A stretch of DNA of 64,000 nt from Anaerolineales bacterium (GTDB lineage: Bacteria; Chloroflexota; Anaerolineae; Anaerolineales; UBA11579). Positions within the stretch are counted from its first letter, which is position 1. Each line of letters opens with the position of its first letter. The position numbers and the translations under genes are program-made. A model generated the notes under the pieces. That model searched no databases. It was given only the letters and a program-made list of their open reading frames with translations, and was not told the DNA's origin. Of the stretch, positions 6,023 through 44,073 are shown in pieces. The DNA lies in contig DATDRZ010000048.1 of the NCBI GenBank assembly GCA_035291465.1, positions 630 through 64,629 of the forward strand, written 5' to 3'.

Positions 6023-6111
6023 GGAGGGATGGCCGAGTGGCTTAAGGCGGCGGTCTTGAAAACCGTTGTGGGTGGCAACACTCACCGGGGGTTCGAATCC
6101 CTCTCCCTCCG
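6023..6111 (+). tRNA. tRNA-Ser (anticodon TGA)
   Basis: GGAGGGA/TCCCTCC acceptor, GTTCGAATCC T-arm, anticodon loop CTTGAAA, 20-nt variable arm (class II). Confidence 0.9.
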
Positions 6112-6125
6112 CTGCACCACAACCT

Positions 6126-6216
6126 GGGGAGGTCGCATAGCCTGGTCTAGTGCGCCCGCCTGCTAAGCGGGTTCCGGCGTTTTAGTCGGACGAGGGTTCA
6201 AATCCCTCCCTCCCCG
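6126..6216 (+). tRNA. tRNA-Ser (anticodon GCT)
   Basis: GGGGAGG/CCTCCCC acceptor, anticodon stem CCCGC/GCGGG with loop CTGCTAA, long variable arm, T-arm GAGGG-TTCAAAT-CCCTC. Confidence 0.85.
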
Positions 6217-6367
6217 CCTTGAATTTGGTTCATCCGCTCGTTACAATATTGAACAACCGATTGCATCAGCACTCGACAGTTTGAGAGCTTCGAAGAAGCG
6301 AGGAAACTGTAAGGTAACCGGGGCATATAGCCACTGGTTACCAACGAGGCCAATGCCCCGGTTACCA

Positions 6368-6440
6368 GCTCTCGTAGCTCAGTGGATAGAGCACTTGCTT
6401 GCGGAGCAAGGGGTCGCGCGTTCGAGTCGCGCCGAGAGCG
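6368..6440 (+). tRNA. tRNA-Arg (anticodon GCG)
   Basis: GCTCTCG/CGAGAGC acceptor, D-arm GCTCAGTGGATAGAGC, anticodon loop TTGCGGA, T-arm GCGCG-TTCGAGT-CGCGC; 73 nt. Confidence 0.9.
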
Positions 6441-35832: not shown

Positions 35833-37008
35833 CTAATAAACAGGCTGGGTGGGATCGACCTGCCGCGCCCAGGCATTGATGCCGCCCACGAGATTCTTCA
35901 CCTTTCTGAATCCGGCCAAGCGCATTAACTGCACGGCTCGACCGGAACGAGAGCCCGTGCGGCAAAAGACTACGAAATCGTCAGCCGTATCCAGTTCGGA
36001 GAGGTGGGCGGGCAGTTGGCCCAAGGGCATTAACTCTGCCCCGGCGATCTGGGAAATATTGAGCTCGTGAGGTTCGCGCACGTCCAGCAGCCTCGGTTTA
36101 TTTCCATTCCTCATTTGCTCAGCAAGCTCATTAGGCGAAATCTCATACTGCGACTCCATGGACACCTCTTCGTGGTCATGCGCGGGAACCCCACAGAAGG
36201 CTTCGTAATCGATCAGTTCAATTTCCTCGGCCGGCAGGCTGCAAACGGCGCAATTTGGATTCTTGCGCAGCTTCACAAAATCGAAGTGCATATCCAGGGC
36301 GTTGTAAAGAAGGAGTTTCCCAACCAACGGCTCGCCGATACCCAGCAACAGTTTCAACCCCTCACTCGCCTGCAGCGAACCGATAATCCCGGGAAGCACA
36401 CCCAGCACTCCGCCTTCCGCGCAGGAGGGCACCGTGCCGGGAGGCGGCGGCTCTGGGAACAGGCAGCGGTAGCAGGGTCCTCGCCTGGCATCGAAAACAG
36501 AGACCTGGCCATCAAAGCGAAAAATGGATCCGTAGACGTTGGGAATGCCCAGCTTCACACACACATCGTTGACCAGGTAGCGCGTCGGAAAATTATCCGT
36601 GCCGTCGATGATCAAGTCGTATCCTTCGGCGATACGCAGCGCATTCGAGGAGGTAAACGGTTCGTTATAGATATCCACCTGGATATCAGGATTGATATCC
36701 AGGACTCTGTCGCGCGCCGACTCAACCTTAAAAGTATTCAGCCGCGAGCTGCCATGGATAATCTGACGCTGGAGGTTGGAAAACTCCACCACGTCGTAAT
36801 CGACAAGACCGATTCGCCCCACTCCAGCAGCGGCCAGATACATGGCCACCGGCGATCCCAGGCCCCCAGTGCCAATGACAAGTACCGAGGAGGCCTTCAG
36901 CTTGCGCTGACCTTCAAGGCCGACTTCGGGAATCAGCAGGTGGCGCGAATATCGCAGAACCTCATCATGCGTGAGATCGGTGGGGCTTGGCATAGGATTC
37001 AAGATCAT
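35833..37008 (-). CDS. moeZ: MoeZ-type adenylyltransferase/sulfurtransferase (ThiF/MoeB E1 + rhodanese)
   Basis: GTGGLGSPVAMYLAAAGVG, CYRC...CAVC, C-terminal rhodanese with active-site CRTGSRS. Confidence 0.88.
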   Translation of the reverse strand: MILNPMPSPTDLTHDEVLRYSRHLLIPEVGLEGQRKLKASSVLVIGTGGLGSPVAMYLAAAGVGRIGLVDYDVVEFSNLQRQIIHGSSRLNTFKVESARDRVLDINPDIQVDIYNEPFTSSNALRIAEGYDLIIDGTDNFPTRYLVNDVCVKLGIPNVYGSIFRFDGQVSVFDARRGPCYRCLFPEPPPPGTVPSCAEGGVLGVLPGIIGSLQASEGLKLLLGIGEPLVGKLLLYNALDMHFDFVKLRKNPNCAVCSLPAEEIELIDYEAFCGVPAHDHEEVSMESQYEISPNELAEQMRNGNKPRLLDVREPHELNISQIAGAELMPLGQLPAHLSELDTADDFVVFCRTGSRSGRAVQLMRLAGFRKVKNLVGGINAWARQVDPTQPVY

Positions 37009-37496
37009 ATCAAACTCCGATTATTTTTCTTTTCGGTAATTGGCGAATGGATTTGTTCGAGTTCCAAATTTCTTGCCAGGCGCCTGCCTTCGGCAGTTTC
37101 CAATTGGCCGCGCAGTTTCTCCGCCGAGGCAACCCCGTGATTCACACCGCGCGGCCGTCCTTTGGAATCGATGATGAAAGTCGTCGGCACGCTAAGTACG
37201 CCCCAGTAATTTGCCAGGTCAGGTCGCTGGGCCGCATCCACTTGTATAACCTGTACCTGGTCGCGCAGTTCCTCGCTCAGGCGCTTCAGCGCCGGCTGCT
37301 GCTGGGCCTTGCAAGGTTGGCAATTGGGTGCGGTGAAGTACAAGATTGCAGGCGTTCCGGGGAGCCGGTTTTCGAGGCCATGGGTTGCCTTGCGGACCCG
37401 CCTTAACATGAGAACGTTGAATGCCCAATAGGCGCTGATCGCGATCAAAGCAATCCCTGCCGCCCAGACAGCCCGAATAAAGAGCTCAGCCATCAA
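37005..37496 (-). CDS. membrane-anchored thioredoxin-fold protein
   Basis: N-terminal TM, then YFTAPNCQPCK (CxxC). Overlaps both neighbours by 4 nt. Confidence 0.8.
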   Translation of the reverse strand: MMAELFIRAVWAAGIALIAISAYWAFNVLMLRRVRKATHGLENRLPGTPAILYFTAPNCQPCKAQQQPALKRLSEELRDQVQVIQVDAAQRPDLANYWGVLSVPTTFIIDSKGRPRGVNHGVASAEKLRGQLETAEGRRLARNLELEQIHSPITEKKNNRSLI

Positions 37497-38233
37497 CCCG
37501 CCTTAGGTCTAAGGCCGGGAAAAGTTCCGTCGGGAGGAGCTTTCACGAAACCTGGAACATGCAATCGATTCAACCAGTAATACACCATGCAGCCGGCGCA
37601 AAAACCGACGAACAGGTTGATCGCCGCCAGGAATATAACCAGCCATACCAAGGCCCAGCCCGCAACAGGAGCGCCGCCGGCCAATAAGGCTAAACCAAGC
37701 AGTTGAACGACGGCCCCGAACCCTTGTGCAAACCGGTGCGGTTCCATATTGTCCGTCAGAACATCAGGTTTCAGCCAGCCGCGCAGCCAACGGCGGTAAA
37801 CGAAGGCAAAGGCAGGAACTTTGAGCAATGTTCCAACCAGCATCGCCAGGCCCGCTATTCCGGCGAGCCAGGGTGCGTCGGAAACATAAGCCGCAATGCT
37901 GATGCCGATTATGAAGGCCTGATTGGTGCGCAGGGCGGCATGGTCCACGGTTTGCAGCGGAGTACCCCCCGCGATGCTGGGCAAGATCATCAGGCTGTCT
38001 CCCGGTTTTAATTGGGTATCGGGCCCGTACAGGTCGCGCACATTCTCGTCGTTCACGAAGAGATTGACGAAGGCGCGCAGCTCTCCCGACTCGGTGAAGA
38101 GGTGCGTTTTCAGTTGTGGGAAAGCAGCCACGAGTTCGTCCAGAGCACCTGACACGGTTCCTGATCTCACTTCCAATTGGGCTTTTCCATCTGTAAAGGG
38201 ACGCAGAGGACTCGGGATTTTTAGCGTGGTCAT
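37493..38233 (-). CDS. cysO: CysO/MoaD/ThiS-like sulfur carrier fused to DUF4395-like membrane domain
   Basis: Residues 1-90 form a beta-grasp ending LMILPSIAGG. Residues 91-246 form 4 TM helices ending FVGFCAGCMVYYW. Confidence 0.72.
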   Translation of the reverse strand: MTTLKIPSPLRPFTDGKAQLEVRSGTVSGALDELVAAFPQLKTHLFTESGELRAFVNLFVNDENVRDLYGPDTQLKPGDSLMILPSIAGGTPLQTVDHAALRTNQAFIIGISIAAYVSDAPWLAGIAGLAMLVGTLLKVPAFAFVYRRWLRGWLKPDVLTDNMEPHRFAQGFGAVVQLLGLALLAGGAPVAGWALVWLVIFLAAINLFVGFCAGCMVYYWLNRLHVPGFVKAPPDGTFPGLRPKAG

Positions 38234-38234
38234 T

Positions 38235-38687
38235 TCATCGACTCCTTGACTCGGTTATTTCTGTTTCCATTCGAATTTCCTCCTCCACAAACCCGGCGCG
38301 ATCATCACTGAGTCGCCAGGATCGGGTTTCCCCAGCCTTCCCATCTTGCACGCTGGTGATTAGGTAGCTAAACCAGGGCATGGCCCATTCGCGGTCGAAT
38401 TCCGAGGCTTGCGCGGGATGGTCGGGGTGGGAATGGAAAATACCAACCAAATCCAAGCCTAGGCGCTGGGCGGATTCTTCAGCGCGCAACACCTCCCGCG
38501 GCAAAAGGAGGTAGCGATTACCTCGCGCGGCCTCCTCCCGGCTGTTTTCGGCCGGCAGGATTGACATCAGGAAGCGGCGTTCGCCTTCCACGCGACCAAG
38601 CAGGAAACCTGCACCCTCTTCAGGATAAGCCGCCTCTCCATGAGCACGAATCCGGTTCATGAGGTCAATAGGTATGTGCAGCTTCAT
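38235..38687 (-). CDS. mec: JAMM/MPN+ metalloprotease (Mec+-like)
   Basis: YPEEGAGFLLG ... HSHPDHPAQASEFD is the E...HxHx7Sx2D JAMM motif. Confidence 0.88.
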   Translation of the reverse strand: MKLHIPIDLMNRIRAHGEAAYPEEGAGFLLGRVEGERRFLMSILPAENSREEAARGNRYLLLPREVLRAEESAQRLGLDLVGIFHSHPDHPAQASEFDREWAMPWFSYLITSVQDGKAGETRSWRLSDDRAGFVEEEIRMETEITESRSR

Positions 38688-39634
38688 TTTTCAAACCCCC
38701 AAAAAGTCTGGCTGAGATATTTATAACCCGTATCAGGGAACACAGTCACCACGATCCCTACTTCCAAGTCCTTCGCCACGCGCTGTGCGGCCACTGCCGC
38801 CGCACCCGAGGACACGCCTACGAACAAACCCTCTTCGCGAGCGATGCGCTTTGTCATCTCGTATGCCTCTTCGCTGCTGATCCCCAGCACTTCGTCCGCC
38901 AGTTCTGAATCGTAGATGCCCGGCAATATCGAGGTGCGCAAGTGCTTTAGGCCTTCCAGTCCATGGAAGGGGCCGTCAGGCTGGACACCGATCAGTTGGA
39001 TCGCCGGATTATGCTCGCGCAGATATCGTCCTGCACCCATCATGGTTCCAGTGGTGCCAAGACCAGCCACAAAATGCGTGACCGCACCGGCTGTCTGCCG
39101 CCAGATCTCAGGACCTGTGCTTTGGTAGTGCGCCTGCCAATTGGCCGGATTGTTGTACTGATCAGCAAAGAAATACCTCTCGGGGTTTTGTTCCAACAAC
39201 CTTCTCGCCAACAACAAAGCTCCGTCCGTCCCTTCAAGCGCATCGCTCCGGTGCAGCTCCGCTCCTAATGCGGCAAGTATCTTCAGTCTTTCCGGGCTGG
39301 CGGACGCGGGAATGGCCAATGCCACGCGGATGCCCAACGAGGCTCCCAAAGTCGCGTAGCTGATGCCCATATTGCCGGATGTCGAATCCAGCAGGATCTT
39401 GCCATTGCCGAGCTGGCCATCAGCCAGCGCTCGGCGAATGATATTGGCCGCCGGCCGATCCTTCACCGATCCGCCGGGGTTGAACCATTCCGCTTTGGCG
39501 AAGAGCCGGACGCCGGCCGGCGGCTCTGCGCCTAGCCTGGCGAGTGGCAGCAGGGGTGTGTTGCCCACCGCATCCAACAAACCGGAGCTGAGCGTCTTGC
39601 GATTGAGGCGAAGTTTCGTTTGTGTAGTTACCAT
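38684..39634 (-). CDS. cysM: cysteine synthase B-type (CysM, sulfur-carrier dependent)
   Basis: Start set at ATG 39634 (MVTTQTK...). NPGGSVKDRPA (PLP Lys), TSGNMGIS. Confidence 0.88.
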   Translation of the reverse strand: MVTTQTKLRLNRKTLSSGLLDAVGNTPLLPLARLGAEPPAGVRLFAKAEWFNPGGSVKDRPAANIIRRALADGQLGNGKILLDSTSGNMGISYATLGASLGIRVALAIPASASPERLKILAALGAELHRSDALEGTDGALLLARRLLEQNPERYFFADQYNNPANWQAHYQSTGPEIWRQTAGAVTHFVAGLGTTGTMMGAGRYLREHNPAIQLIGVQPDGPFHGLEGLKHLRTSILPGIYDSELADEVLGISSEEAYEMTKRIAREEGLFVGVSSGAAAVAAQRVAKDLEVGIVVTVFPDTGYKYLSQTFWGFEK

Positions 39635-39651
39635 TTCAAACCAAAACAAAA

Positions 39652-39745
39652 GCGGCCAACAGGAAACAAAAAACGGGCTTGCCGACTGGCATGCAACCTA
39701 GACATGCATGCGGGGGTGGCAACCGCCCGTTCTTCTGTTGGCCGC
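39652..39745 (-). promoter_or_regulatory. nested terminator-type hairpin in the cysM leader (putative attenuator expression platform)
   Basis: Outer stem GCGGCCAACAG/CTGTTGGCCGC (11 bp). Inner stem AACGGGC(GG)TTGCC/GGCAAGCCCGTT. Apical stem GCATGCA/TGCATGC. The inner stem is followed by TTTTGTTT and the outer stem by TTTTGTTTTGG. Confidence 0.55.
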
Positions 39746-39770
39746 TTAGCGGGTCAGATGGTCTGGGCGG

Positions 39771-39815
39771 TTAGCTTCCCCGCCCCAAACACAAGCAAGT
39801 GTTTTGAGTACGCAT
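39771..39815 (-). CDS. candidate 14-codon leader peptide MRTQNTCLCLGRGS
   Basis: ATG CGT ACT CAA AAC ACT TGC TTG TGT TTG GGG CGG GGA AGC TAA. Two Cys codons. The stop sits in the loop between complementary GGGGCGGGG and CCGCCC. No SD. Confidence 0.35.
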   Translation of the reverse strand: MRTQNTCLCLGRGS

Positions 39816-39837
39816 ATTCTAGAATTAAGTCTTACAA

Positions 39838-39865
39838 ATTATAAGGGCGGATTTCCAAGTGTCAA
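39838..39865 (-). promoter_or_regulatory. consensus sigma70-type promoter of the cys operon
   Basis: Minus strand TTGACA (39865-39860), 16 nt spacer, TATAAT (39843-39838). Confidence 0.6.
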
Positions 39866-40167
39866 GGGGCAATGCTTAAGAGTGTGGCCCGACTTGTCTA
39901 CTAAGCCATGGAATTGTTCCCACACACGCGTGCCGATCCAGTCCCTGCACGATTCACCACGGCACCTACGGTCTGCGCCCGGATCTGGCGCCTGGCGCCG
40001 TCCCTTCGCTATCCTTTCGATAAAGGATAGTTCAGGGCAGGCTCCGAACCGGCTCAGCCTGATCGAGAAGGCGGAGTCCACCCTTTAAATCAGGTCCACC
40101 TGGAACGGGATGCGCGCATCCCCAGCGGCAAAGAGGCGATGCCGCTGGGAATTCCTCCTGAAATCTC

Positions 40168-40199
40168 CGCAAAAGAAGAGGCGGCTTTCGCCGCCTCCT
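40168..40199 (-). terminator. intrinsic terminator of ilvE
   Basis: Minus strand GAGGCGGC-GAAA-GCCGCCTC followed by TTCTTTTG. Confidence 0.75.
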
Positions 40200-40223
40200 T
40201 GGTTCGTTCCGCGATCAGACGTT

Positions 40224-41165
40224 TTACGAGTTCACGACCATTTTCTCGTAGACCGCCTGGTTCCAGTGGCGGTATTTCTTGAGTTTGCCTCGCACCGCAT
40301 CACTGTAAAGCTCGCGCAGCTTGGCTGTGAGCGGGCCCATCTTGCCGTCGGCGATCTGCCTATGATCGACCCTGGTGATGGCAGTCACCTGGGCTGCCGT
40401 TCCAGTGAGGAAAAGCTCGTCGCTAATGTACACCTCGGTGCGATCAATCGAACGCTCGCGAACTTCGAGGTTCAATTCGTTGCGAGCCAGTTCGATGACC
40501 GAGCGGCGCGTGATGCCCTCGAGAATGTTATCGGTGATAGGCGGGGTAATCAGCACGCCGTCGCGCACCATAAAGAAGTTTTCAGCGCTGCCTTCGGAGA
40601 TATGGCCGTCCTGGTTCAATACCAGGGCCTCATCAAAGCCGGAGCGGACTGCATCGGACTTGATAAAGGCCGTATTCACATAGGCGCCGGCGATCTTGCC
40701 GCGGGCGGGGATGGAGTTATCGTCCACACGGCGCCAGGAAGAAACCGTAACATGTGCGCCGGTATCGTTGGATACGTATTTGTCGAATGGCACGGAGAAT
40801 ATGGTGATCTCCGTCTTTAAGTCATGCAATTTCACCCCAATGATCTCATCCGCAAAATAAATCAACGGGCGGACGTAGACGTCTTGCCGGTACCCTTCCT
40901 TCTGTAACAATTCGATGGTGATATGAACCAGTTCGTCTGGTGAATACCCCACATCCATATTCATTAGTTTGGCGGAATTCAACAATCGCTTATAGTGGTC
41001 CTGGGGACGAAAGATGAACAGCTCTTCCTCTGCCTCGCTCCAGTACCCGCGGACTCCCCCAAATGCCGCAGTACCATAATTCAAGGCATGGGTCATGACT
41101 CCGATTTTGGCATCGGAGTAAGGCACGATCTTGCCGCGAAAAAAGGCATAGTTCGGGACGGCCAA
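40224..41165 (-). CDS. ilvE: branched-chain amino acid aminotransferase
   Basis: 313 aa. GVMTHALNYGTAAFGGVRGY, class IV aminotransferase pattern, GGAGG RBS. Confidence 0.92.
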   Translation of the reverse strand: MAVPNYAFFRGKIVPYSDAKIGVMTHALNYGTAAFGGVRGYWSEAEEELFIFRPQDHYKRLLNSAKLMNMDVGYSPDELVHITIELLQKEGYRQDVYVRPLIYFADEIIGVKLHDLKTEITIFSVPFDKYVSNDTGAHVTVSSWRRVDDNSIPARGKIAGAYVNTAFIKSDAVRSGFDEALVLNQDGHISEGSAENFFMVRDGVLITPPITDNILEGITRRSVIELARNELNLEVRERSIDRTEVYISDELFLTGTAAQVTAITRVDHRQIADGKMGPLTAKLRELYSDAVRGKLKKYRHWNQAVYEKMVVNS

Positions 41166-41518
41166 GAAACACCTCCAGCTAGGTTAGTCGCCTATAAGCC
41201 AGGCGGGCCATGATTCAGGGGCCATTTCATTATAACGTATGGCGTCAACCGGTTTTCATTAATATGAAGCTTGGTGATTAATGACGCGGAAAAATGAGGA
41301 CAAAAGACGGCCCTTGGTTATCTCATAAACGTTATTGGTCCGCAACGCGTCGAATGAGCAGGTTTCCGGCATTGTCCTGCAATGTATGGGCGGGTCTGGT
41401 TCCTTGCACTCATCCCGATACCCAAAACGCGACTAGACCCGCCCGTTCAATCGCACCTGTCCTATCCGGGCCTATTGATGAAACAGCTTCTAGAAATCGG
41501 GGCATCAACGCATCAGAA

Positions 41519-43986: not shown

Positions 43987-44073
43987 CGGAGAGGGAGGGA
44001 TTCGAACCCTCGATACCTTGCGGTATACGCGCTTTCCAAGCGCGCGCACTAGGCCAGACTATGCGACCTCTCC
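43987..44073 (-). tRNA. tRNA-Ser (anticodon GGA)
   Basis: The reverse complement reads GGAGAGG-TC-GCATAGTCTGGCCTAGTGC-G-CGCGC-TTGGAAA-GCGCG-variable arm-GAGGGTTCGAATCCCTC-CCTCTCC-G. Confidence 0.88.

Follow-up and report, generated by a model that had tools for sequence, protein, structure and literature searches.

We analysed a stretch of 64,000 nucleotides from an Anaerolineales bacterium (Chloroflexota, Anaerolineae; assembly GCA_035291465.1, contig DATDRZ010000048.1, positions 630 to 64,629), hereafter called the window, and concentrated on the RNA leader that precedes a cysM-type cysteine synthase gene on its minus strand. Transcribed from a strong promoter of the sigma-70 type, this leader measures roughly 200 nt and contains a short open reading frame (sORF) with two cysteine codons, followed by two nested hairpins that each end in a run of U residues (Table 1). 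It is a candidate cysteine-sensing attenuator of an operon that, besides cysM, encodes a Mec-type protease, a CysO-like sulfur carrier, a thioredoxin-like protein and a MoeZ-like activating enzyme.

The leader promoter matches the consensus at all 12 hexamer positions and was the only one of such quality detected by the promoter scan within 38500-41500. Its -10 hexamer is separated from the ATG of the sORF by 22 nt. From this geometry, transcription is predicted to start near 39831, which would leave a 5' untranslated region (UTR) of ~16 nt without Shine-Dalgarno (SD) sequence. A first-pass annotation, made from the sequence and a list of its open reading frames, had proposed this promoter with its 16-nt spacer, the 14-codon sORF with Cys codons 7 and 9, segments 2 and 3 of a set of alternative pairings, an inner hairpin with its U-run and an 11-bp outer stem with a second U-run, and all of them lie where it had placed them. 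Segment 1 required a small correction, since the sequence is present and begins at the last base of codon 10, not at codon 11. The predicted pairings turned out to be larger than described: the 6-bp helix between segments 1 and 2 belongs to a more extended hairpin that includes the second Cys codon, and the 8-bp helix between segments 2 and 3 belongs to a longer antiterminator in which segment 1 also pairs with the CCCCGC box. The proposed scheme of three exclusive states (1:2, 2:3 and 3:4) is right in outline and simplified, as the antiterminator runs from segment 1 through the stop codon and segment 2 to bases beyond, and the terminators are two, one nested within the other.

Table 1. Features of the cysM leader, of its operon and of the upstream gene, with positions numbered from the first letter of the window.
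Feature	Position	Strand	Basis or remarks
-35 hexamer TTGACA	39865-39860	minus	Sequence and consensus promoter scan
-10 hexamer TATAAT	39843-39838	minus	16-nt spacer after the -35 hexamer
sORF for the leader peptide MRTQNTCLCLGRGS, 14 codons followed by TAA	39815-39771 (ATG 39815; TAA 39773-39771)	minus	Sequence
Regulatory codons Cys7 TGC (39797-39795), TTG, Cys9 TGT (39791-39789)	39797-39789	minus	Sequence
Segment 1, GGGGCGGGG	39786-39778	minus	Alternative partners: segment 2 or CCCCGC box
Segment 2, AACCGCCC	39772-39765	minus	Overlaps stop codon; partners segment 1 or segment 3a
Segment 3 (3a), GGGCGGTT	39728-39721	minus	Within inner hairpin 39731-39672
CCCCGC box (3b)	39715-39710	minus	In terminator 5' arm; pairs with segment 1
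sORF-end hairpin (segments 1:2, extended), predicted anti-antiterminator	39793-39759	minus	-15.3 kcal/mol; stop codon in loop
Predicted antiterminator helix: 3' end of the sORF, together with stop codon and segment 2, paired with inner-terminator 5' arm (3a, 3b)	39788-39705	minus	-38.4 kcal/mol, z = -3.2
Inner terminator hairpin (segments 3:4)	39731-39672	minus	-27.7 kcal/mol, z = -3.3
First U-run, TTTTGTTT	39671-39664	minus	Sequence; predicted termination site 1
Outer stem, 11 bp, GCGGCCAACAG with CTGTTGGCCGC	39745-39735 with 39662-39652	minus	Encloses inner terminator
Second U-run, TTTTGTTTTGG	39651-39641	minus	Predicted termination site 2; ends 6 nt before cysM ATG
cysM-type cysteine synthase, pyridoxal phosphate-dependent, first gene after the leader	38684-39634 (ATG 39634)	minus	PF00291, E = 1e-70
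JAMM/Mec-type protease	38235-38687	minus	Pfam
ThiS/CysO-like sulfur carrier fused to DUF4395 (PF14340, unknown function)	37493-38233	minus	Pfam
Thioredoxin-like protein	37005-37496	minus	Pfam
ThiF plus rhodanese, MoeZ-like activating enzyme	35833-37008	minus	Pfam
Class IV aminotransferase, ilvE-like, upstream of the leader	40224-41165	minus	On the same strand as the leader

The outer stem and the inner terminator together form one long hairpin (39745-39652) with a computed energy of -51.3 kcal/mol (z = -6.1). Folding of the entire 203-nt leader, a check that the first-pass annotation had suggested together with the alternative states, yielded a minimum free energy (MFE) of -82.2 kcal/mol (z = -4.5), a stability that none of 200 shuffled sequences equalled. 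In the antiterminator state, the 5' arm of the outer stem falls in the loop, where the window sequence has a small local hairpin (CCGC/GCGG plus UCUG/CAGA). The cysM gene itself has no clear SD. In the full-length fold, the bases ACCAU just after segment 2 (39756-39760) pair with AUGGU at the start of cysM (39635-39651 region); orthologs do not keep it at a constant position, and an added translational effect is possible.

Conservation of the reading frame and of the RNA structures

The window CysM has 585 relatives, the closest with 71% identity and the best 80 nearly all from Chloroflexota metagenome-assembled genomes (MAGs); they assign the organism to class Anaerolineae of that phylum. We extracted the 400 nt upstream of cysM from 80 related Anaerolineae genomes. 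The alignment of orthologous leaders had been set beforehand as a test of the attenuator, and the sORF and its Cys codons were kept in 63 of the 80 loci, as a short frame ending in C-x-C-x-x-[R/G/Q]-[G/D/V]-x-stop and located about 130-310 nt ahead of cysM (e.g., MKPFKHCLCIGRGS, MNTFTYCLCLRRGS, MSETAYCLCLGRGS and MVRCICMGRGS). These 63 leaders were selected solely by the C-terminal motif of the sORF. Counting the frames opened by an ATG towards the first Cys codon, frame 0 accounted for 59 of them versus 3 and 1 for the other two frames; the remaining four have a TTG start with GGAG ahead. A well-spaced SD-like motif was found in 22 of the 63 (GGAG 6-10 nt before the start, including the leaders with TTG). 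In those devoid of it, such as that of the window, the -10 hexamer lies 19-25 nt before the ATG (36 orthologous leaders), compatible with a short 5' UTR of ~12-18 nt, and a promoter of the TTGACA-17-TAnAAT type is present upstream of 59 of the 63. The N-terminal part of the sORF varies in length and sequence and never has a stop codon.

A pattern scan of metagenome contigs provided at least 120 matches, 83 of which carried an M-initiated sORF of up to 30 codons. The sORF ending is thus conserved in 63 genome loci and in these 83 metagenome loci among the matches listed. Across 143 distinct leaders, both Cys positions are invariant at the amino acid level, and the intervening codon is free to change (TTG, ATG, ATC, TCC, TCG, ACN). 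The codons that follow have a different character: NGG at position -4 (Arg, Gly, Trp or Ser), CGG at -3, GGN at -2 and mostly TCG at -1, the latter tracking its pairing with GACGA. The nucleotide consensus of the leader core reads TGC nnn TGT nnn nGG CGG GGn nnG TAR CCRCCGCC. More distant loci possess runs of three to five consecutive cysteines (CCC, CCCC or CCCCC; e.g., MFKAICCCCCHKMGR, ...YCCCCCLWTGA and ...LCCCCLEGGV) in a surrounding RNA that differs in sequence and is alike in its layout of hairpin and double terminator. Taken together, these signals indicate that the leader sORF is translated, with cysteine as the sole constraint at the peptide level.

The terminators are widespread too. 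Of the 109 leaders whose downstream sequence is long enough, 105 have a hairpin with a U-run after it between the sORF and the gene, and the nested pair (inner hairpin and U-run inside an outer stem with its own U-run) occurs in at least 71 of these 109 and also in the distant leaders with polycysteine runs. When the window structure was projected on a 36-sequence MAFFT alignment, the outer stem was 97% paired, with 9 of its 11 pairs changed on both sides. In the first MAFFT alignment, only this stem and the helix between segment 1 and the CCCCGC box scored well for the window structure; the register of segments 2 and 3a is shifted by 1-2 nt between the window and the main group of leaders, for which we adopted a main-group reference structure, with a 30-sequence alignment, and an alignment-free duplex test. 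On this reference, 86.7% of the cells of the full terminator state were paired and 26 of its 47 pairs were double-changed, a score that no one of 500 shuffles reached and that fell to at most 53% when the partner strand was slid. By parts, 10 of the 13 outer stem pairs had changed on both sides, the inner-terminator helices (4-6) were 81-92% paired with 11 of 23 pairs changed on both sides, and the equivalent of the sORF-end hairpin (helix 1), which also appears in MFE folds, was 79% paired. The RNAalifold consensus recovered the outer stem and left the rest in fragments, and we preferred the named structures. The sequence of the outer stem (GYCAAC... / ...GUUGRC) is recognisable across the family although its pairs covary.

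The competing structure involves two strands. The first, X, comprises the four sense codons at the end of the sORF, its stop codon and ~15 nt beyond; it can fold on itself as the sORF-end hairpin or pair with Y, the 5' arm of the inner terminator, to which it is complementary. The X:Y antiterminator reaches ~25 bp in relatives (a two-part helix of about 20-27 bp) and was 82.8% paired across the 30 leaders, compared with at most 53% for slid partners. Duplexes between cognate X and Y strands had a mean energy of -35.4 kcal/mol versus -29.7 kcal/mol for non-cognate ones, a mean as low as the former being found in none of 5000 permutations. The helix of segment 1 with the box (GCGGGG:CCCCGC) is paired in 94-100% of the sequences and includes compensations such as CAGGG with CCCUG (L052, L070, L073) and GGGGCGU with ACGCCCC (L063, L074), and segments 2 and 3a show correlated changes (CUACCG with CGGUAG; CCACCG with CGGUGG). 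Thus, the compensatory changes that the first-pass annotation had advised looking for exist in the terminator and in the antiterminator pairings.

Ribosome position and the choice of fold

We folded the transcript as it would be when the 5' arm of the terminator has just emerged, masking a ribosome footprint from A-site -15 to A-site +12. The X:Y antiterminator formed in 41 of 62 leaders without ribosome, 47 with the ribosome on the first Cys codon, 39 on the second and only 3 on the stop codon. For the window, a stall at the second Cys codon gave the antiterminator and a ribosome at UAA gave the terminator. Once made, the terminator is thermodynamically dominant, and the informative moment precedes the synthesis of its 3' arm. 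The two states of the window are nearly iso-energetic (-15.3 plus -27.7 versus -38.4 kcal/mol) and, with the whole terminator present, equilibrium folding is ambiguous, therefore the choice between them must be kinetic, as it is in other attenuators.

The leader accordingly presents the constituents of a trpL-type attenuator: a translatable short frame in the 5' leader (its translation being predicted from sequence signals), regulatory codons that match the pathway's final product (Cys codons before cysteine synthase and sulfur-carrier genes), a predicted intrinsic terminator between the frame and the first structural gene (-27.7 and -51.3 kcal/mol, with U-runs) and, in the computed folds, an antiterminator that excludes the terminator depending on ribosome position. 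We consider it very probable, on the basis of comparative sequence and folding, that this leader is a ribosome-mediated transcription attenuator that senses cysteine via the charging of tRNA-Cys and controls the cysM-mec-cysO-trx-moeZ operon. The trpL-type reading advanced in the first-pass annotation is thereby supported by conservation, covariation, footprint folding and gene context.

Our confidence in the detailed choreography is moderate, somewhat better than even. When charged tRNA-Cys is plentiful, the ribosome would reach UAA and its footprint would cover X while the polymerase makes Y and the 3' arm of the terminator; after ribosome release, the local sORF-end hairpin, acting as a kinetic trap, would keep X occupied, so that both terminators would form and transcription would end before cysM. 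When it is scarce, the ribosome would stall with a Cys codon in its A site and open the 5' strand of the sORF-end hairpin, freeing segment 2 and the bases 3' of it, which would serve as the toehold that captures the emerging Y. Capture of Y would block the inner terminator, the outer one would be silenced during read-through by the trapping of its 5' arm in the antiterminator loop, and the polymerase would then pass both U-runs into cysM. Far more tentatively, and with doubts of our own, we propose that one antiterminator disables two nested terminators (the inner by pairing with its arm, the outer by a topological lock of its arm) and that it works within a ribosome-read cysteine regulon of Chloroflexota in which DUF4395 would be assigned to sulfur-carrier/cysteine metabolism. 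If that idea holds, the nested double terminator would be an architectural variant, and the lock might hold leakage to a very low level under ample cysteine and make read-through all-or-none under scarcity.

Several observations weigh against attenuation by ribosome position. Its support comes from sequence comparison and computed folding, and all the relatives are MAGs. When the complete inner terminator was folded at equilibrium, its base was predicted in 31 of 62 leaders without ribosome, 21 with the ribosome on the first Cys codon, 43 on the second and 54 on the stop codon; in the window, it was still predicted with the ribosome on the first Cys codon. At the decisive time point, the predicted preference of the naked RNA is for the antiterminator, a bias unlike the 'superattenuation' of trp, unless the local hairpin serves as a kinetic trap. 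A simple terminator scan, restricted to loops of 3-8 nt, did not flag the leader hairpins, whose loops are larger, and we gave it no weight in either direction. The C-terminal R-G-S of the peptide is set by RNA pairing and not by the peptide, and the synonymous choice of Cys codons is nearly fixed (Cys1 is TGC in 135 of 143 leaders, Cys2 is TGT in 62 of the 63 genome leaders); therefore, a constraint at the RNA level acts on those codons too. Finally, the window sORF lacks an SD and has two Cys codons only. The first-pass annotation had listed both of these as caveats, together with the chance origin of so short a frame. They are countered, respectively, by the GGAG that other lineages carry 6-10 nt before the start, by E. 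coli trpL, which likewise has only two regulatory codons, and by the strong bias for frame 0 among the orthologous leaders. As for the codons themselves, in many leaders the sORF-end hairpin joins the Cys2 codon to an ACA further downstream.

Competing explanations

The same nucleotide-level conservation of the core, with its nearly fixed Cys codons and its C-terminal residues following RNA pairing, would suit a riboswitch-like element of unknown class that binds a ligand, a tRNA or a protein, the sORF being an untranslated by-product of the conserved RNA. The first-pass annotation had kept a metabolite riboswitch as its alternative. However, the conservation has codon character: the frame opened by an ATG prevails, with 59 of 63 leaders versus 1-3 for the other frames, the SD is well placed in 22 of 63, the variable N-terminal part is never interrupted by a stop and, despite a different RNA sequence, runs of 3-5 Cys codons stay in frame in distant leaders. 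Outside the hairpin arms, the alignments revealed no conserved unpaired pocket hinting at a ligand site. Searches against Rfam gave no relevant match to the leader, either for the entire window at the gathering threshold or at E<=10 in 39550-40300, where only miRNA- and snoRNA-like chance matches (E>=0.5) appeared. We find an element of this kind very unlikely. Among known classes, the T-box was rejected since no T-box model matched at those two levels of search, as were the S-adenosylmethionine (SAM) and other known riboswitches, as no Rfam riboswitch model matched the window or the leader.

Control might instead be mainly translational, with the long hairpin hiding the cysM ribosome-binding region until a stalled ribosome opens it and with U-runs that are incidental. 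This is how cysteine attenuation by polycysteine sORFs works in mycobacteria (10.1101/834739); in the case of Ms5788, translational fusions responded to cysteine and transcriptional ones did not. The pairing of ACCAU with AUGGU at the cysM start in the full-length fold and the end of the outer stem, 17 nt before the cysM ATG, can be read in this sense. Nevertheless, a G+C-rich hairpin with a directly adjoining U-run is maintained in 105 of 109 leaders, and the conserved alternative pairing takes an arm of the terminator, not an SD. Moreover, the structural gene begins anywhere from 129 to 306 nt after the sORF stop, therefore the gene start region is outside the conserved structure. Predominantly translational control is, in our judgement, most improbable.

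We assign the same low credence to a functional Cys-x-Cys micropeptide (acting in nascent-chain arrest, in metal or redox sensing or as a precursor peptide) next to an ordinary, partial terminator. The motif C-x-C-[LIMP]-x-R-G-S is strikingly uniform, and leader peptides acting in trans do exist, peTrpL being an example. Nonetheless, the C-terminal conservation is that of nucleotides (NGG at -4; -1 following the pairing with GACGA), the tails that follow the Cys run in distant relatives are entirely different, and the leader is always tied to cysteine or sulfur genes, with no modification or export genes seen adjacent to it. A chance frame beside an ordinary terminator of the ilvE-like gene, which lies upstream on the same strand, can be dismissed: 14 codons may well arise by chance, but a perfect promoter sits between that gene and the sORF, and the comparative data rule it out, promoter, sORF and terminators recurring in more than 140 distinct leaders before cysM, cysK, rhodanese and DUF4395 genes with differing upstream neighbours.

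Genes preceded by the leader and relation to known attenuators

In the window, the operon frames that follow cysM overlap by 4 nt or sit 1 nt apart (35833-38687), and their gene set corresponds to the sulfur-carrier (CysO)-dependent cysteine pathway known from Mycobacterium tuberculosis. Between the leader promoter and the ilvE-like gene lies a 358-nt spacer (39866-40223) with a 9-bp hairpin (CTATCCTTT/AAAGGATAG); this spacer had no Rfam match and no similarity in any of 200 compared loci, and a mechanically predicted 80-amino-acid frame (39839-40081) was not conserved across these 200 loci. The sole Rfam matches in the window were a cluster of three tRNA genes (6023-6440, plus strand) and one tRNA gene (43987-44073, minus strand).

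An nhmmer search with the leader core retrieved one copy in the window, and a second copy there was not found. Three related loci do have a second copy (L043, 554-593; L045, 556-593; L046, 623-661), located before cysK-cysE and ~2.4 kb upstream of cysM. It carries its own promoter and double terminator, which makes for two cysteine operons in tandem, both predicted to be attenuated. Among the metagenome matches listed, the next gene could be identified for 73 of the 83 leaders, and all 73 fell into three groups: 53 cysteine synthases of the CysM or CysK type, among them a form with a CBS domain, 17 tandem-rhodanese sulfurtransferases, preceded by the leader subtype ...CSCLWRGS, and 3 DUF4395 proteins. 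The remaining pattern matches listed were mostly chance hits in unrelated sequence, with some upstream of cysteine synthase genes. The leader thus moves with its own promoter before varied cysteine and sulfur genes, as expected of a cysteine-specific cis-regulator, and its presence before cysK-cysE, rhodanese and DUF4395 genes points to a cis element of an Anaerolineae cysteine regulon.

Two of these targets deserve description. The tandem-rhodanese protein has 279 amino acids (MSYxHPEYLVETEWVA...) and follows a leader subtype ending in ...C[SL]C[LP]WRGS (L081, L082, L084, L091, L096, L107, L115, L117, L130, L140, L141, L145, L154, L171, L180, L187 and L195), which suggests thiosulfate or persulfide sulfur transfer within the same cysteine regulon. 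DUF4395 follows the Cys leader as a stand-alone protein at three loci (L122, L148 and L157) and is fused to the sulfur carrier in the window; association links this domain to cysteine or sulfur-carrier metabolism.

As in the classical attenuators trpL, hisL, pheL, thrL and leuL and in the actinobacterial ilvB and trp leaders, an intrinsic terminator is predicted here before the first structural gene, with an exclusive antiterminator chosen by ribosome position. The likeness to trpL extends to the two regulatory codons and to the stop codon lying in or beside the 5' strand of the antiterminator. Nevertheless, the Anaerolineae leader shares no sequence similarity with any of them and differs in its amino acid, its phylum and its split C-x-C codons, in an antiterminator built from the entire end of the sORF together with the stop codon and ~15 nt more, in having two nested terminators instead of one, and in a naked RNA predicted to favour the antiterminator at equilibrium. 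In Firmicutes, the usual RNA control of Cys and Met genes is by T-box and S-box/SAM riboswitches, and T-boxes occur in Chloroflexota too. Both also attenuate transcription before sulfur amino acid genes, the T-box by reading tRNA charging and the SAM class by reading SAM; by contrast, the present leader is too short for them, lacks the specifier-loop and T-box architecture and has an sORF, predicted to be translated, instead.

The mycobacterial polycysteine sORFs are leaderless translational attenuators that sequester an SD (Canestrari et al. 2020, bioRxiv 10.1101/834739); one of them, Ms5788A, has nine Cys codons, eight of them consecutive, these elements have no terminators, and attenuation by an upstream frame (uORF) was stated to be previously undescribed for cysteine (10.1101/834739). 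Actinobacterial cysteine leader peptides had been noted in 2005 'without obvious terminators' (Seliverstov et al. 2005, PMC1262725). What they have in common with the leader described here is the proposed sensing of cysteine by stalling at Cys codons near the stop and the sharing of one device by several cysteine and sulfur loci (a 'ribulon'); in addition, the CysO/CysM/Mec/MoeZ-type pathway of M. tuberculosis is the kind of operon that would be regulated here. Unlike them, our leader has two Cys codons and hairpin and U-run terminators, is predicted from promoter geometry to have a ~16-nt 5' UTR rather than being leaderless, pairs its sORF end with the 5' arm of a terminator rather than hiding a downstream SD with the Cys tract, and has no sequence relationship with the mycobacterial elements. 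Closer in type is uORFC-8-2, a predicted attenuator before Rhodobacterales cysS with two conserved Cys codons and a terminator stem and U-run (Brewer et al. 2021, PMC8632094). It is limited to alpha-proteobacterial cysS, has tandem Cys codons (14-15) inside the first stem and possesses a single terminator (PMC8632094). Both are predicted to be ribosome-mediated transcription attenuators with two conserved Cys codons and a terminator; by description, the present leader is set apart by its targets, cysM and other genes of cysteine biosynthesis and sulfur transfer, its occurrence in Chloroflexota and its split Cys codons.

A survey of 2010 recorded leader-peptide systems as then known from Proteobacteria and Actinobacteria, to which it added its own Firmicutes cases (PMC2965389), and we did not find, in the literature searched, a leader-peptide attenuator in Chloroflexota or a description of this Cys leader family. 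The leaders appear to represent a widespread, hitherto undescribed family of attenuators with cysteine leader peptides that would work like trpL. Such a family is moderately surprising for its phylum and architecture and is not a new principle. With it, leader-peptide attenuation of the classical type would reach Chloroflexota (Anaerolineae) and the biosynthesis of cysteine; earlier cysteine-sensing leaders were shown to be translational in mycobacteria or were predicted before Rhodobacterales cysS. Its nested double terminator and its Cys codons, from two split to five in tandem, may offer a natural series for the study of attenuator tuning, and the leader, being compact, is a candidate part for controlling genes in response to cysteine. 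In the organisms themselves, it would tie the tandem-rhodanese sulfurtransferase and the uncharacterised DUF4395 to the cysteine regulon and, being short, sharply defined and represented by at least 120 pattern matches, it may be usable as a marker of cysteine- and sulfur-regulated genes in uncultured Anaerolineae.

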